Assembly: GCA_963789265.1 (NCBI GenBank)
Contig: CAWBKB010000001.1
Span: 288,001 to 352,000, forward strand
DNA: 64,000 nt
Direction: 5' to 3'
Origin: an uncultured delta proteobacterium
GTDB taxonomy: Bacteria; Desulfobacterota; Desulfomonilia; Desulfomonilales; Desulfomonilaceae
Every line of letters begins with the position of its first letter. Within the stretch, counting starts at the first letter, position 1. Positions 55,146-62,493 of this stretch are shown here, piece after piece. The notes below the pieces were generated by a model. That model saw only the letters and a program-made list of their open reading frames with translations. It did not search any database and was not told where the DNA came from. Both the position numbers and the translations under genes were made by a program.

Positions 55146-55339
55146 TTTGTGTCCAGGTGAAAGCGGACGGCTCAAATAAGGCATCAGAGATTCGCGTGCA
55201 TGTCAAATTTCAAGACCTGACCCCTTGCTTGCTTATTTATTTGGCGAAGATCTATCGCCGCCGACAGGCTACTCGCTCTCCGTCCAAGAGACAGACCACC
55301 TTGCTACCTTTGGCCAACCACTGTTTCTTCAAAACTTCT

Positions 55340-56273: not shown

Positions 56274-57153
56274 GATTGTTCTCCTTAGTGCTGTTTCTTA
56301 TTTGCTCCGATGCTTGATCGCCCTTGCCTCGCGGAACGTGAGCCGAGCAGTGGTCCGCTGTGTAGAAATCGTGGGGCGAGATCGAGACCTTGAAGATGCG
56401 CTCCGTGTTCCGCACTCTTCTCCGACGCTGCTGTTGGCCACTTCCTACGCGAAGGCCGGTCAATTCAAACATCATGCTGCGGGTCTATGAATATCAGAGC
56501 TTTCCCAATGCCTTTTGACGGAGACGGCTTCTTGCCAGGCTTTTGTTCAGAAAATTTTGATGGTTAAACCAGTACAAATTCCAGCATTCCGCGCACAAAT
56601 TCCGATTTTGCCAAGAACCCGGCCGGACTCCGTTAAACAAAAATTGTACATTGGCCCGGCGTCAGTCAACACGACAACTAAAGCAAAGAATTGGGGTCAG
56701 GTCTTGTTTCTTGCCTTTTGCCGTTGCCGTTGGTAGAGCCTGCTCCCTGTAGAGCAGTGGAGTCAAACGTGCGCAGTGATCTCATGGTGTGAAAAGCCGT
56801 ACTGCAGATGGGCTTTGTCGACTGCCCTGTCTCGTTTCGATGCGGACCGAACTCACGGCAAGAGTCCATCGAGAGACGGGAAATTCCGGGGACACCATGC
56901 TTTTTTCCCGTACCGCATATGGCGATAGAATTTTCTACTTGGCCGCTGATGACGTTTGATGTTGGTGTCAGGCATTGAAATGCCATTATAGGTCGCACAG
57001 AAATTTCAATATACTTCGTCATATTCAGGTAATAACAGTCTGTTCAAATAAGCCATCAGAGATTCGTCTGGATGTCAAATTTCAAGACCTGCCCCGTTTT
57101 TTCATCTAGCGGTGTGTTCTTTTATTGCCCTTTGTGCAGGGCCAGTATTCTAT

Positions 57154-57765
57154 TCACCCTGTGGTAAGGTAAAATATGACAAGTGTCACCGGTGGTGCAG
57201 TGAGCAGCAGGGCATAAAGTCCATATGTATTACAAATATTTCTAAGACCTATCCGTCGGGCCGAGCACCAATCAATCTGAAAATCCGCTCGATTCTTAGC
57301 CTTGAAAAGTTCAAAGTCGATGACATCGTGATTTTCCTGATATCGCCGCAAAATGCTAGCATATCGTTTTGATATCTTTTGGATTTGCTCAGGAGTATGG
57401 CCATTTTCCTCATTGTAGGGCGCTAGCTGGAGAAGATCGTTGTAAACATTGGTGATCTCGTTGGCGCAGTTATAGAGCCTTTCAGCCCTAAGTTGATAAT
57501 TCTTGGAAGCCTCAAGCAATGACAGCACCAATATGAACAATGACGCCAACAGCGTGGTAAATGCCAGAATATTTAGATATTTTACATTGAACACGAGAAA
57601 ATATGGTGCTAACCGCAAGCCAATTACATATATGCTCAGAATCGCGATCGATAAGATAGACCAGAGACTTTTTGTCTTGCAGCGCCTGTAGGTATTATAT
57701 CTAGCTCCTTTAGTGACCCACATTTTTTTGGCAAGCTCTTGTCCAAACGGAGTTTTTTCTGCCAC
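57154..57765 (-). CDS. SLATT domain two-TM membrane effector (SLATT_5-like)
   Basis: KMWVTKGARYN..RR, two TM helices, LSLLE...NYQLRAERLYNCANEI, Y..IL....ENH...DF, C-terminal TM. Confidence 0.8.
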   Translation of the reverse strand: MAEKTPFGQELAKKMWVTKGARYNTYRRCKTKSLWSILSIAILSIYVIGLRLAPYFLVFNVKYLNILAFTTLLASLFILVLSLLEASKNYQLRAERLYNCANEITNVYNDLLQLAPYNEENGHTPEQIQKISKRYASILRRYQENHDVIDFELFKAKNRADFQIDWCSARRIGLRNICNTYGLYALLLTAPPVTLVIFYLTTG

Positions 57766-57925
57766 GAGGCGCCTCCGGGTGTTCGCTTTGTCGAGCGTAG
57801 GGGCCGCCTCTGAAATAAAAAAACTCTCCGAAGTGCTATGCCTCGGAGATCCTGGGCCTCACAGGGCTCGGATTACAAATACCCCCGCCGTGCTGACAGG
57901 AGCCTCCCTTGCGGGGAGGCAACCC
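57766..57925 (-). ncRNA. Candidate structured ncRNA between the RT and SLATT genes
   Basis: GC-rich 160 nt within an AT-rich locus, with at least four stems and a U-rich single-stranded tract. Confidence 0.45.
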
Positions 57926-58447
57926 CTACGAAATCAATCCTACATCAAGATCAAGATCTGACAAGTGTTTTTTCTTCACGCCGATAAATAAGATTTCGAT
58001 TTGCTCGCGTGAATAGCGTTTTTCAGGATTCAACAATCCCCTATCAGCTAAGTATTTGATTTTGGCAGGGACTGTCTCATATAATTCATAATTTTGTATG
58101 TAGCCACCAAAGGTGTCATACTTTATCTTGTAAAATGCAGTTGACAATTTCTTTAGCTGCCCAGGCGTGCGGTAGTCGAAATCAGATAGCCTGCGAAAAA
58201 AACCTCTAATGATTCCGTCCAATTTATGGAGTAACTGCATGTCATTGATCTCTGCGAAGTAAAATAACCAACCATATCGTTTCTGCTCACTAATCGCTCC
58301 AGTTATTTTTTCGTTGAGATCTTCTATGAAGACCCGTTCTTGGGTTTCCTTGGTCATCCATCCGCATTTCTTCAATTGGTCCCCCGAATTATGAAGGTAC
58401 CAGGTGAACCTGGCAGCTATCGAAGTGAGGAATCTCTCTATATTTTG

Positions 58448-60057
58448 GGGTGCCGCGATTTCTTGTCATGAGTGGCTCAAGTAAAAACGAGTAGATAGCA
58501 CGGAGAAAGGAGTGGTTTCCGGTCCTCTTATGGGGTACATGACGTTTGGCGAACGATGTATCCGCTGGGGAGGACCGGATATGGAACAAGGAATACCGAA
58601 CATAATCTCGCTGGTCAATGAGATTCTCGCCTTTGTGCGAGAGTCAGCGCAAGGAATGGAAATCGGGGAAGTAGAAAGGCAGCTTCTTCCCATGGTGATG
58701 GCGGTCGGGAAAGCGGCTCTTGAAGAATTTGTGTCTGAAAAGGGGACCGGATATGCCGGCAAGGAGATCATCGAACCCCAGGGCCATCGATTGCCATATG
58801 TTCGTGACAGGGGATGTGCATATCGGTCCATCTTTGGAACGATATCCATCCGGAGAGCCTACTATCACGCAACCGGCTCACCGGGAGTCTTTCCTTTGGA
58901 TGGAGAGATCAACTTGCCTGAGAGAGGCTATTCATACCTGGTTCAGGAGTTCTCTTCCCGGCTTGCGGTTTCGATGAGCTACGAGGATGCGGAGGAGATT
59001 TTTCGTTCCTTCTTTCCCGTAAGGATGCCAATTCGTTCACTGGAGAGCATTGTGGGAGACGTCTGCGACGAGGTGGATCGATACTACGCAGAGAAGGCCC
59101 CGCCGGATCTTTGTCCGGATGCTGTGGTAACGGTCGCTACCGTAGACAAGAAGGGGGTGGTTATTCGTAAGCCCCAGGAAGGCGGGGCCGGTCCCGAGAG
59201 GGTCTCCGTTGATCCCGACAAGCCCGGAAAGAAGAAGATGGCAACCGTGATCTCCACCTACGTCACTCCACGTTACGTCCGCACGGAGGACGACATTGTC
59301 CGTGAGGTATCGGACGAGGGTAGTTTCGATTCCAGGCCCAAACCCCAGGACAAGCTTACGTGGGGCAGCCTCACCGATGGTTCGGAAAAGACGGTGGCCC
59401 GCCTGAAGAAGGCTGTCGAACAGCGATTGCCGAAAGGTAACGAGCTGGTCTGTATCCTGGACGGAGAGCGTTCTCTCTGGGCACTGGTATGCGCATATTT
59501 TCCTGCAGCCTTTTTCGTGCTGGACATCTTTCACGTCCTGGAACACTTGGGGAAAGCCGCTCTTTGCTTTTATGACGAGGGCAGCCCGCAAGCCAGAGAA
59601 TTCGTGACGGAGAGATTGAGAATGCTCCTGGGCGGCAGGGCCGGCAGGCTTATCGGCGGGCTCAAGCAGATGCTAACCAAGCAGGAACTCTCCGGCGCCA
59701 AGAAACATTGCATCGAACAAGTCATCGGGTATCTCCAACGAAACCGCAAGCACATGCGGTACGAAATCTGCTTGGCAAAAGGCTATCCCATCGGCAGCGG
59801 GGTCATTGAAGGAGCATGTCGCAACCTCATCAACGACAGATTGGAACTCACGGGGATGAGTTGGACGATCCATGGAGCGGAAAGCATGATCCACCTGAGG
59901 GCCGTTCACATCAACAACGACTGGGATCTCTTTTGGAATTATAGACGAAGATCGGAGAGGCGACGCCTCTACGGCATCGAAGATACAAACTCTCCCGAGA
60001 TCCGGGATCAAGAACTACCGCGTGCCGCATAACTCCTGACAGAAAGTAGCGGCACCC
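58448..60057 (+). mobile_element. ISKra4-family insertion sequence, 1610 bp, with 9-bp target duplication TATATTTTG
   Basis: IRs gggtgccgcgatttcttgtcatgagt / actcctgacagaaagtagcggcaccc; TSD at 58439-58447 and 60058-60066. Confidence 0.92.
58581..60032 (+). CDS. ISKra4-family transposase
   Basis: FPLD..INLP...YSY, LDGE..LW, LDIFHVLEHL, GYPIGSGVIEGAC. Confidence 0.9.
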   Translation: MEQGIPNIISLVNEILAFVRESAQGMEIGEVERQLLPMVMAVGKAALEEFVSEKGTGYAGKEIIEPQGHRLPYVRDRGCAYRSIFGTISIRRAYYHATGSPGVFPLDGEINLPERGYSYLVQEFSSRLAVSMSYEDAEEIFRSFFPVRMPIRSLESIVGDVCDEVDRYYAEKAPPDLCPDAVVTVATVDKKGVVIRKPQEGGAGPERVSVDPDKPGKKKMATVISTYVTPRYVRTEDDIVREVSDEGSFDSRPKPQDKLTWGSLTDGSEKTVARLKKAVEQRLPKGNELVCILDGERSLWALVCAYFPAAFFVLDIFHVLEHLGKAALCFYDEGSPQAREFVTERLRMLLGGRAGRLIGGLKQMLTKQELSGAKKHCIEQVIGYLQRNRKHMRYEICLAKGYPIGSGVIEGACRNLINDRLELTGMSWTIHGAESMIHLRAVHINNDWDLFWNYRRRSERRRLYGIEDTNSPEIRDQELPRAA

Positions 60058-61154
60058 TATATTTTGTTCTCTTATGGTTACTTTGGGTAACTCTAAGTGA
60101 TAGCCCAAATAATCGTACGGGCAGTTGGAAATATTGCACTCCGTTTTTCTTTTACTGAGGTTCAAGTCCAATTCGGTCAGGTCACGGGTTATTTCTGTTT
60201 CAAGTTCGTCTGCATTTTCTTCCTGGACAAAGAACAAAATATCGTCCACGTACCTAAAATATTTGAGCCCGTACCGCTGAAATTTCTGGTCCAATTGATG
60301 GAGATAGATATTTGCTAGAATGTTTGATATCGCAAGACCCTGAGGTATTCCTTTGTCGGTCTTATACTGTCCGCGGTCAGATCTGCTGTTGAGTGGAACT
60401 GTTGGTGTGCTGACGGCTAGTTTCAGCAACGTAAGTATTTTCGGCGATTTAACCTTGGCACGAATAATCGACATAAGGACCAAGCGATTTATGCTATCAT
60501 AAAATGACTTGATGTCACCTTTGAAGTAACATAGAGTTTGCTGTCCATTCGATTTATCGAACTCTTTTATTTCTCTTATGTAATCATTTGGCAACCTTCT
60601 GTTCACAGAGAGCGGAAACACTTGATGCATGAATTCCTTCAATAAATACAAGACTATGCGATCGCGCATGGTAGCGACTGAAATCACTCTAGGAAGTTTG
60701 CCCCTGCCTTTGCTCAGTAACTTCTCAACGTATGGCGTAAATCTATATGTTCCTTTATTACATTTCCGATAAATAACTTGGAAGTGTTCTTTTTTATCTC
60801 GATTGAAGGTTTTAATACCAATTCGATCCAAACCTCTGGTCGGTTTTTTCGAGACAAAATTATCGTAAGCTGATTCAATGCTCTTTATAGAAAATAATCT
60901 CTTGAAACGTTCTGCAGGATAGGGCATCGCTGGCATATCACCGTTTCACAAAACTACCGCATCTTTTCTCTATCACAGCAACTGTTTCATTACAATTGAA
61001 ATCTGATACGTGGCACTACGGGAGGAAGTTTGGGGACGCTCTTAAAAAATTAACAAACTTTCTGCCGTAATCTGTAGTGATTCCCATGGGCAATCTTCTT
61101 TATTCTACGCGCGGCGTAGCCAACACTTGGAACTGTCATTCCAGGTGGGGGGCA

Positions 61155-61344
61155 GGGGTCAAGTCTACTCTTGGCTCATCTGCGCGCTGGCATCCAGTGC
61201 CGTAGGGGCGCCGAAGGGGTCAAGTGTGCTCTTGACTCACGTTGCGCGTGTTACTCGATGTCATGGTGCGCCTAAATGAGCCAAGAGCAGACCCGACCCT
61301 CTTTGGTTACAGCCGAACCATGAGTCAAGAGCAGACCTGACCCC
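61155..61344. repeat. Cluster of four 24-bp repeats, two forward then two inverted
   Basis: ggggtcaagt.t.ctcttg.ctca at 61155 and 61216; inverted tgag.caagagcagacc.gaccc at 61277 and 61321. Confidence 0.75.
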
Positions 61345-61545
61345 TTTGCCTCTTTCAGGCGCTGACGGAGGCTGTGCGCGACTCGGCCGTACCCTCAGGA
61401 AACACCCTCGTTCCTTGCTACGGAGAAGTTTTTCCTTGACGGAGGGCCTTTCAATGGGTGACCTCTTTCGAAGGTTCCAATTTCTTGAGGTATTTCTAAA
61501 GAAAGCGATTCGTTTCGGACAGCGAACCACTATAGGAGGCCTGTA

Positions 61546-62493
61546 ATGTCCTACAGTCAAACAGTATACGATCTTCTCGAAAATTTTGTTCCAATAGGAA
61601 CATTCTCGTATGCAGCGTTGGTGAGCCGAGAACCCCATTATGAGCATTTTGCTGAAAACGTCCGGGCAGCCGCCATTGCCTCAACATTGGGGCTTAAGAG
61701 CTTAGATTACGCAAAGCGCCGGTACGATTGTAAGGACCAGGGGGTAGAGACGGAAGTACTCCCAATTAACGCATATATCGACGCGTATCACTTTACGAAT
61801 TCATATGTGAGGAATTGCATTGCCTCTCTAAAGACTGATGAAAAGCCGGAGCCTTCTGCTGGAGAGTTTTGTGCGGCAGTTGTTCTCACAAGACTACCCT
61901 CCAGTTTTTTTTGCGCTCATTTAATGTACGAATTGGGGCACCGGTATGAGGGGCATGCAATATCGAGGCTTATTCTCGAACAACTTGCTTGGGCCTATGC
62001 GGCCTTCAAAGCTCAAGATGTAGAGATTGTAAAAAAAATCCGTACAACGAAAACATTGTCAACACTCACGTCATTTGCCCCCCAAGCGGGTGAGTTATAT
62101 GGTTTCTTAAGTAAGAAGACCCATATTGATTATTCGATTCATCCGGAGTTCTTAAGAATCTATGATGGTACAAATGCTATTATTCGAAGCCACGGCGACT
62201 ACATTTTGCCTGAATACGGTTCGGTAATCCTTCTGCTGGGCGATCTATTTGGTTTAGTATGGGAGGCATCTCAGTTTCAATATATAGTTTCACCGCAGGC
62301 GGTTGAATCGAGGCGAGGCACTTGTTTTCCCAAACCAGATCGAGCGTACCTTTTAAGCATGCAGGAATACCTGAGTAATATCGACCAAGCCGTACAGGAG
62401 GCTTATCATGCTCTAAATGAAGAATCGGGCGAAATTTCTGCGGCTCTGAGAATCTTTAGAGAATGGTCTACTCAGAGAGTAACTAACGGCTGA
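61546..62493 (+). CDS. Low-GC hypothetical protein, possible HEPN-like (DUF5677-type) fold
   Basis: AGGAGG RBS; SRLILEQ and LYGFLSKKTH motifs. Confidence 0.5.
   Translation: MSYSQTVYDLLENFVPIGTFSYAALVSREPHYEHFAENVRAAAIASTLGLKSLDYAKRRYDCKDQGVETEVLPINAYIDAYHFTNSYVRNCIASLKTDEKPEPSAGEFCAAVVLTRLPSSFFCAHLMYELGHRYEGHAISRLILEQLAWAYAAFKAQDVEIVKKIRTTKTLSTLTSFAPQAGELYGFLSKKTHIDYSIHPEFLRIYDGTNAIIRSHGDYILPEYGSVILLLGDLFGLVWEASQFQYIVSPQAVESRRGTCFPKPDRAYLLSMQEYLSNIDQAVQEAYHALNEESGEISAALRIFREWSTQRVTNG

Follow-up and report, generated by a model that had tools for sequence, protein, structure and literature searches.

The region analysed here, referred to as the window, is a stretch of 64,000 nucleotides (64 kb) of contig CAWBKB010000001.1 from an uncultured delta proteobacterium, in which the minus strand carries a reverse transcriptase (RT) gene, then a 160-nt gap and then a gene for a SLATT protein of 203 aa. 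A sequence-only reading of the gap had proposed that it encodes a structured RNA. The RNA at 57796-57930 on the minus strand was identified, with a probability of about 85%, as the noncoding RNA (ncRNA) of a DRT10 (UG17) anti-phage system with the order RT-ncRNA-SLATT, at a locus where an insertion sequence (IS) splits the RT gene. The features of the locus are the following:

60057..60936, minus strand: UG17 RT, N-terminal part, 293 codons (PADLOC RT_UG17, E 1.2e-93, profile positions 4-282 of 429; Pfam RVT_1, E 1.7e-22)
58448..60057, plus strand: ISKra4-family insertion sequence, 1610 bp (NCBIfam NF033572, E 7.5e-74, 249 bits against a cutoff of 205)
58438..58447 and 60057-60066: target-site duplication CTATATTTTG, 10 bp, 100% identical copies (direct repeat D18)
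57926..58437, minus strand: UG17 RT, C-terminal part, ending in ...DVGLIS* (PADLOC RT_UG17, E 2.4e-35, profile positions 280-428 of 429)
57796..57930, minus strand: ncRNA of the DRT10/UG17-B type, 135 nt, with helices P1-P5 and loops A and B (match to covariance model R3; covariation on alignments A7 and A10)
57766..57795, minus strand: spacer, 30 nt, with GGAGG (57776-57772) 6 nt before the SLATT start codon GTG (read from the sequence)
57154..57765, minus strand: SLATT_5 effector gene, apparently intact (Pfam PF18160, E 1.7e-46, profile positions 6-190 of 192)

The C-terminal RT_UG17 match covered the piece 58462-57926 and was contiguous on the profile with the N-terminal match; the runner-up PADLOC family for the RT was a generic RT (E 4.5e-43 vs 1.2e-93 for RT_UG17). 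The SLATT gene was also matched by PADLOC RTasSLATT (E 2e-37) and by NCBIfam SLATT_5 (E 5.2e-41). With the RT stop at 57926, the ncRNA running from 57930 to 57796 and the SLATT start at 57765, the UG17-B arrangement is present. The last residue of the window RT is a serine, and among 39 homologues this position was S in 29, Y in 9 and A in 1. This C-terminal serine matches the published Ser/Tyr priming residues, and we infer its equivalence to S456/Y444. The GC content was 0.40-0.43 in the RT and SLATT genes, 0.60 in the ncRNA and 0.535 in the whole window; as the two genes are GC-poor relative to the window, their base composition suggests acquisition by transfer.

UG17 RTs have been described as DRT10, a tripartite system of ncRNA, SLATT protein and RT in which a loop of the ncRNA templates tandem-repeat cDNA (PMC12632851). 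According to RNA immunoprecipitation sequencing and cDNA sequencing the DRT10 RT binds an ncRNA of 137-143 nt (PMC12632851; 10.64898/2026.04.29.721553). Tang et al. describe a 137-nt ncRNA and an RT that primes on its C-terminal Ser/Tyr and copies a loop located 3' of a stable stem-loop (PMC12632851), and re-alignment on an A-B-A' repeat then yields kilobase-long tandem-repeat single-stranded DNA (PMC12632851). A single pseudo-symmetric ncRNA, in which Loop A measures 12 nt and the template Loop B 19 nt, was found to carry two RT protomers (10.64898/2026.06.29.735271). Sanchez-Nieto et al. distinguish three DRT10 subtypes, of which UG17-B has the layout RT-SLATT with a gap of ~200 bp (10.64898/2026.04.29.721553); this gap holds a subtype-specific ncRNA upstream of SLATT, with RNA-seq support in Methylotenera mobilis (10.64898/2026.04.29.721553).

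The predicted fold of the window RNA consists of a 15-bp basal stem, P1, formed by 57930-57916 with 57810-57796 and enclosing, from 5' to 3', the 3-bp GCAA hairpin P2, the 9-bp hairpin P3, seven unpaired bases, P4, P5 and loop B. The elements are located as follows, all on the minus strand:

57916..57930: P1, 5' strand, CGUAGGGGUUGCCUC (minimum free energy (MFE) fold, pair probability 0.97-0.98)
57906..57915: P2 hairpin, CCC-GCAA-GGG (3/3 pairs covary)
57881..57903: P3 hairpin, GCUCCUGUC-AGCAC-GGCGGGGGU (8/9 pairs changed on both sides)
57874..57880: loop A, AUUUGUA, which with the next bases gives the motif UGUAAUC
57849..57873: P4, two-part stem AUCC..GCC-CUGUGA-GGC..GGAU (7/8 pairs changed on both sides)
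57826..57848: P5, stable hairpin, 8 bp modelled and 9 possible (57849-57825 with the ninth; 8/8 pairs covary)
57811..57825: loop B, AGUUUUUUUAUUUCA, candidate template loop between P5 and the P1 3' strand
57796..57810: P1, 3' strand, GAGGCGGCCCCUACG (MFE fold, covariation)

Both the RT stop codon UAG (57928-57926) and a portion of the Ser codon before it fall within the 5' strand of P1. No other stretch of the RNA was as well conserved in primary sequence across phyla as the P3-P4 junction motif UGUAAUC (57868-57880 in the window, columns 76-90 of A10), and G55, U56, A58, U59 and C60 of the loop A region were invariant in 10 sequences. From the text descriptions, this junction is probably the counterpart of the published non-template Loop A that is bound by the second RT protomer.

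Relatives were collected by a search with the N-terminal part of the RT, which gave 641 proteins at E <= 1e-20 among 1520 candidates. An RT alignment (A1; the window part and 39 of the 120 listed matches) was scanned against one genome per species; of the 353 stretches that matched, 335 encode a relative, and the analysis continued with the best 80 as loci (L001 onward). By tblastn, SLATT was placed downstream of the RT in 51 of these 80 loci (gaps of 114-272 nt) and upstream in 6, while the remaining 23 were left without a position. Judged by eye and uncounted, most of the 51 RT-SLATT gaps share one fold plan, in which a long basal stem encloses two pairs of hairpins, with a short unpaired stretch between the pairs and an unpaired loop after the second. 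A MAFFT alignment of ten intergenic RNAs (A2), in which only UGUAAUC aligned well, was excluded from the structure work. Three covariance models were built. The first (R1), from the window and L003, gave 31 matches at E <= 10, among them strong ones directly after the RT in L001, L002, L004 and L005. The second (R2), from eight sequences with the P1-P5 structure set by hand, gave 43 matches at E <= 10, and the third (R3) was made from 20 matches from other genomes with the window left out. When R3 was run over both strands of the whole window, it returned a single match, 57796-57930 on the minus strand, with 82.1 bits and E 4.7e-16; over the window and the 80 loci it gave 42 matches at E <= 0.006. 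Calibration of the models was short and the E-values are rough.

Covariation was counted on two alignments. On A7 (21 R2 matches) 88.1% of cells pair, compared with 66.2 +/- 1.0% in shuffles, and 37 of the 41 pairs changed on both sides, compared with 25.2 in shuffles and 13-22 in controls in which the structure was slid. On A10 (42 R3 matches, 41 distinct rows) the corresponding values were 86.9% against 60.8 +/- 0.9% (0/500 shuffles as high) and 39/41 pairs against 32.8 +/- 1.8 (0/500 as high), with 23-31 when slid, and the covariation score was 0.656 against 0.082-0.154 when slid. Compensatory pairs on A10 were found in all parts of the structure: P1 13/13, P2 3/3, P3 8/9, outer P4 3/4, inner P4 4/4 and P5 8/8, with 90.8%, 95.9%, 85.6%, 71.2%, 78.1% and 90.0% of cells pairing, respectively. 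We regard this comparative evidence as decisive for a conserved structure beyond chance. The window RNA belongs to a conserved, covarying family located directly at the 3' end of UG17 RT genes, and in A7 and A10 one covariance model spans RT-linked ncRNAs of Cyanobacteria, Bacteroidota, Pseudomonadota, Thermodesulfobacteriota and others.

All sequence elements listed in the sequence-only reading are present on the minus strand at the place given there. Its imperfect AUCC...GGAU stem is P4, its 9-bp stem UCUCCGAGG/CUUCGGAGA is P5, both with the compensatory changes given above for the 41 distinct homologues, and its unpaired U-rich tract is loop B. The structure as it had been drawn is wrong at both ends, and P1, P3 and the motif UGUAAUC had been missed. 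Of the hairpin GCCUCCC-cgcaa-GGGAGGC only the inner 3-bp GCAA stem (P2) is conserved, as GCCUC belongs to P1; the proposed register has a pair probability of ~2% and a penalty of 4.5 kcal/mol when enforced, and the sequences of L017 and L015 do not allow the extended form. The interval assigned to the element, 57766-57925, also has to be shifted: the RNA starts 5 nt earlier and ends 30 nt before the SLATT start. The IS that splits the RT gene had been overlooked.

At the downstream end a GAGGCG...CGCCUC stem by the SLATT ribosome-binding site (RBS) had been drawn, and with it an attenuator that would keep the toxic effector off. As a riboregulator, the RNA would control translation of the effector through pairing of GAGGCG with CGCCUC, or of GCCUC with the GGAGGC of the RBS. 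Three copies of GAGGC and two of GCCUC do occur in the RNA and spacer of the window, the P1 3' strand and the spacer form a duplex calculated at -18.3 kcal/mol (shuffled mean -12.7; 13/200 as low), and P1 is followed by a run of at least four U in 11 of 26 loci, where it could stop RT read-through into SLATT. However, the stem has a probability of ~2%, costs 4.0 kcal/mol and excludes the conserved P1, because it uses the P1 3' strand. It is also not conserved in relatives: in 23 of the 25 other RT-ncRNA-SLATT loci the pairing of P1 3' strand and spacer was no better than in shuffles, the exceptions being L025 and L044 (<= 5/200 shuffles as low), and the spacer between RNA and SLATT varies from 4 to 118 nt in relatives without conserved pairing to P1. 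In six loci, moreover, the RNA follows the RT with no SLATT downstream, and control of such a gene is therefore ruled out as the conserved role. We consider regulation of SLATT in this manner very unlikely. Still less credence was given to the structure being the mere end of the RT transcript, in which P5 and U7 would form a Rho-independent terminator, the rest would be GC-rich spacer and the RT would use another RNA or none. P5 with U7 does fit the plain intrinsic terminator pattern, which counts against the identification as a DRT10 ncRNA as well: a pattern scan flagged TCTCCGAGGCATAGCACTTCGGAGA + GTTTTTTTAT (9 pairs, 5 of them GC), and the region holds 4 such sites compared with 0.9 +/- 0.8 in shuffles. 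Yet close relatives keep P5 and follow it with loops of the AGGAUUUAACUUUAUU type in which the U runs are only 3-5 long, the helices on either side of P5 covary, including a P1 of 13-15 bp that closes over P5, and R3, built without the window, matches the whole 135 nt from end to end. Published DRT10 RTs bind exactly such an RNA (PMC12632851). A terminator as the whole explanation is considered very improbable.

The sequence-only reading had further taken the RNA as a partner of the RT with the U tract at the template place. This agrees with the UG17 RT, the SLATT_5 effector, the published DRT10 architecture and the covariation, and its guess of an A-rich or short tandem-repeat cDNA fits the published DRT10 mechanism. 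Across the 42 rows loop B was 15-25 nt long with a median of 19, which equals the published length of the Eco3 Loop B. The window loop B is the shortest of all, with 15 nt, and contains U7-A-U3, in which U7 is the longest homopolymer run of the 42 rows (next longest 5). In its five closest relatives loop B has 18-19 nt and reads AGG(A/U)UUU(U/A)ACUUUAUU..., that is, UUUA-(A)C-UUUA, an A-B-A' pattern; the corresponding positions of L017 read UGA-ACU-UGA. Every loop B offers some A-B-A' repeat; in the window it would be UUU-A-UUU, which is trivial for a U-rich loop. In a test on 20 loops, 12/20 had an A of at least 4 nt, compared with 6.8 +/- 2.0 in shuffles (11/2000 as high), a statistic that has little power on short AU-rich loops. 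We infer that loop B is the template from its position after P5 and from the published experiments, and not from this statistic.

Several points weigh against the identification as a DRT10 ncRNA. Folding of the single window sequence was not significant: the MFE of 57750-57940 is -75.1 kcal/mol with z = -1.70, and 10/200 shuffles fold as well, which would also suit a terminator. The alignments used for the pair counts were fitted to the model structure, which biases them towards it, and the structure itself came partly from the MFE fold of the window. The link to the experimentally studied RNAs consists of protein families, position and architecture only, and expression of the window RNA, its binding to the RT and its cDNA are extrapolated from the sequence and from the E. 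coli DRT10 systems. Rfam 15 holds no family for the DRT10 ncRNA, and therefore scans keep missing such RNAs. With filters off, R3 gave at best 13.6 bits (E 0.11, opposite strand) in three plasmid SLATT-RT loci out of 13 matching records, a silence that parallels the published ncRNA models, which work within one subtype only. The window loop B is 4 nt shorter than that of its closest relatives and is without their (A)AC segment. Finally, when the loops were collapsed to 23 clusters, the A-B-A' count fell to 9/23, compared with 7.7 +/- 2.2 in shuffles (685/2000 as high). An Rfam 15 scan of 56500-62000 (E <= 1) returned only psbNH (18.8 bits, E 0.58), which was rejected as a chance match, the gathering score being 45.

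The loop B differences also raise the question of whether the window RNA, though a true DRT10 ncRNA by descent, is a decaying relic, in which a 4-nt deletion in loop B, at the time of the IS insertion into the RT or later, destroyed A-B-A' and which would be dead even if an RT were supplied. The shortened window loop may indeed be non-working as a template, being the shortest of the 42 rows with U7-A-U3 in place of the relatives' UUUA-(A)C-UUUA, and the RT is split by the IS. Against decay, the five helices and loop A are intact, and the 82.1 bits lie within the range of relatives that have a full-length RT frame. The IS duplication is a perfect 10 bp and the RT halves carry no other lesion, which therefore leaves little time for decay, and published truncations that removed B entirely were tolerated (PMC12632851). 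A relic of this kind is possible, but we consider it the less expected outcome. The identification as a DRT10 ncRNA is common to both cases: the window RNA is a further member of the already described DRT10/UG17-B ncRNA family, at a locus probably inactivated by an IS. For annotation, the 160-bp gap is best labelled as a DRT10 ncRNA and the whole locus as a DRT10 system inactivated by an IS.

The ISKra4-family element interrupts the RT gene at codon 293. It codes on the plus strand for a transposase of 506 aa (58512-60032), and its termini are 26-nt inverted repeats with 81% complementarity. After removal of the IS and one copy of the duplication, the RT gene has 1392 nt (463 codons and a stop) with zero internal stops. 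As the halves join in frame without an internal stop, the insertion is clean and probably recent. The ncRNA and the SLATT gene are intact and the RT gene is split, i.e., the three components are not all intact. Because the element, with its intact 10-bp duplication, cuts the RT gene, RT is most probably not produced from the window copy, whose RNA and SLATT gene would then be the remnants of a recently inactivated system. An insertion in a UG17 RT was reported to abolish sbcB dependence (Mestre et al. 2022, PMC9226505). Insertion of an IS into the RT would be expected if the active copy is costly, which fits the toxicity reported for the system under limiting ExoI. A second interrupted gene was observed in L005 (2933-4627), a Desulfobacteraceae metagenome-assembled genome (MAG), in which a group II intron lies within the UG17 RT; it has an open reading frame (ORF) of 478 aa with RVT_1 and GIIM domains, and the RT halves and the ncRNA are otherwise conserved despite the intron. 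UG17 RT genes are thus found interrupted by mobile elements of two kinds, the IS in the window and the group II intron in L005, an observation that adds a little to the published texts. Elsewhere in the window, 52 nt at 55274-55325 match, in opposite orientation, positions 972-1023 within the IS at 83% identity and may be a remnant of a related element.

If the window RNA works as the E. coli DRT10 RNAs do, two RT protomers would sit on one ncRNA, and the RT would prime on its own C-terminal Ser or Tyr (Ser in the window RT). It would copy the loop after the stable hairpin, here P5, and halt at this hairpin. The nascent DNA would re-align on the short downstream A-B-A' repeat, by which tandem repeats would be added. 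The resulting single-stranded repeat DNA, limited by the host ExoI, would somehow be sensed by the SLATT membrane effector. Should the window loop B be used, the product would be A-rich: copying of UUU-A-UUU would give (TAAA)n, or slippage on U7 a near-homopolymeric dA tract.

In the relatives, the position of the RNA was tied to the RT. Among the 41 loci with an R3 match, the RNA started between -10 and +79 nt of the last base of the RT stop codon in 39; in 18 loci it began at or before this base, overlapping the stop codon, and in 26 within 5 nt. SLATT_5 was confirmed downstream of the RNA by Pfam in 29 loci. In L001, L002, L004, L005 and L014, the place of the RNA after the RT is unchanged but SLATT_5 is found upstream, directly against or overlapping the beginning of the RT gene. 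L017 shares this arrangement; its upstream gene encodes a protein of 217 aa that lacks a Pfam match and is homologous to a protein downstream of the RNA in L033 (E 1e-27). The loci with the order effector-RT-ncRNA are:

L001:2872-5009
L002:2871-5008
L004:143-2265
L005:1598-5602
L014:2626-5004
L017:1632-3825

No gene downstream of the RNA was found to be common to these six loci. L064 has the published order ncRNA-SLATT-RT (E 5e-4), and the three gene orders are rotations of one cycle. L035 and L055 have the RNA after the RT and no recognised effector. In a quick RT tree of 42 rows the window grouped with L003 and the clade of L001, L002, L004 and L005 (SH-aLRT 99), and the change between RT-ncRNA-SLATT and SLATT-RT-ncRNA took 3 events, 2 of them forced by well-supported branches. 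None of the DRT10 texts consulted mentions the order SLATT-RT-ncRNA, and a narrow phrase search ('downstream of the RT') of three DRT10 preprints, with figures and supplements outside its scope, gave no match. Two loci showed peculiarities of their own. In L075, a Fusobacteriaceae MAG, the model gave a weak match (27 bits, E 0.0045) at 296-428 that immediately precedes the RT start and overlaps it; this may be a fourth arrangement or chance. In L007 (4557-5151), a Richelia MAG with an ncRNA identical to that of L006, the SLATT match begins at query residue 71 and no ORF of at least 100 aa starts near the RNA; its effector may be truncated.

An RNA anchored at the RT stop codon while SLATT moves bears on how the RNA is transcribed and loaded, and goes slightly beyond the published texts. 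It raises the idea that the ncRNA is permanently attached to the 3' end of the RT gene rather than being a free-standing gene upstream of SLATT, which we hold to be speculative and rather unlikely. If it were true, the mRNA of the RT would itself supply the template RNA, as its 3' end. The Ser codon and the stop codon of the window RT (57926-57931) are located at or inside the basal stem of the ncRNA. As the priming serine would thus be encoded at or within the stem, a newly made RT could load in cis on the RNA that encodes it, as in the cis-preference of long interspersed nuclear element (LINE)-type elements, and translation of the last codons would compete with folding of the ncRNA. A weak sigma-70-like match, TTGTCA-16-TAGGAT (9/12), ends 7 nt before the RNA; no promoter is claimed from it because it sits in the conserved C-terminal coding part of the RT and the relatives have no clear -10 box.

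Of the described systems, UG17-B of M. mobilis JLW8 is alike in having a UG17 RT upstream of SLATT_5 and a structured ncRNA in the gap (~200 bp there, 160 bp here). It differs in that the window RT is disrupted by an IS, and the comparison was made through the published text. The phyla named there for UG17-B are Pseudomonadota and Bacteroidota, and the window lineage is outside these; the RTs nearest to the window RT are from Thermodesulfobacteriota, Desulfobacteraceae and other MAGs. With Eco3DRT10 and Eco1DRT10 the window RNA shares a basal stem made of its 5' and 3' ends, five helices, two single-stranded loops, a candidate template loop of ~19 nt after a stable hairpin and an RT with a C-terminal Ser/Tyr. 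However, those loci are ordered ncRNA-SLATT-RT and their template sequences are unrelated to that of the window, which also has the small hairpin P2 between P1 and P3 where Eco3, by description, is said to have a 4-nt loop.

The U-rich unpaired tract after a stem-loop resembles DRT9 (UG28), which uses a poly-U template for the synthesis of poly-dA, and Tang et al. describe the DRT10 and DRT9 ncRNA structures as resembling each other (PMC12632851). In DRT9, though, the poly-U template is conserved, whereas the U7 of the window is no family-wide feature, being absent from all 41 relatives, and the effector here is SLATT. An identity as DRT9 was rejected, the best family of the RT being UG17, with UG28 not among the 25 best PADLOC families listed. 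It is a speculative and rather unlikely idea that the U7-A-U3 loop is a natural step from DRT10-type repeat synthesis towards DRT9-type poly-dA synthesis. Telomerase RNA is alike in that a short template is copied repeatedly, with the product re-aligning on a repeat of the template start (an analogy drawn in PMC12632851), and in that a helix 5' of the template acts as boundary (an analogy likewise drawn in PMC12632851). It differs from the bacterial system, which is protein-primed, has no chromosome-end substrate and has an RNA of ~135 nt with another fold.

The RT was also compared by tblastn with a phage collection, in which nothing was found at E <= 1e-20. Upstream of the RT, the interval 60937-61140 had been named as an alternative site for the ncRNA. 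Its folding did not differ from that of shuffles (MFE z = -0.12; 82/200 fold as well), it has no R3 match, and no promoter-like or terminator-like sites were found in 60800-61500. Further upstream, at 61156-61343, a 23-nt repeat, GGGTCAAGTNTRCTCTTGRCTCA, occurs four times at distances of 220-400 nt from the RT start, with no other copies elsewhere in the window and none in 100 shuffles. Two copies lie on each strand and form long inverted pairs.

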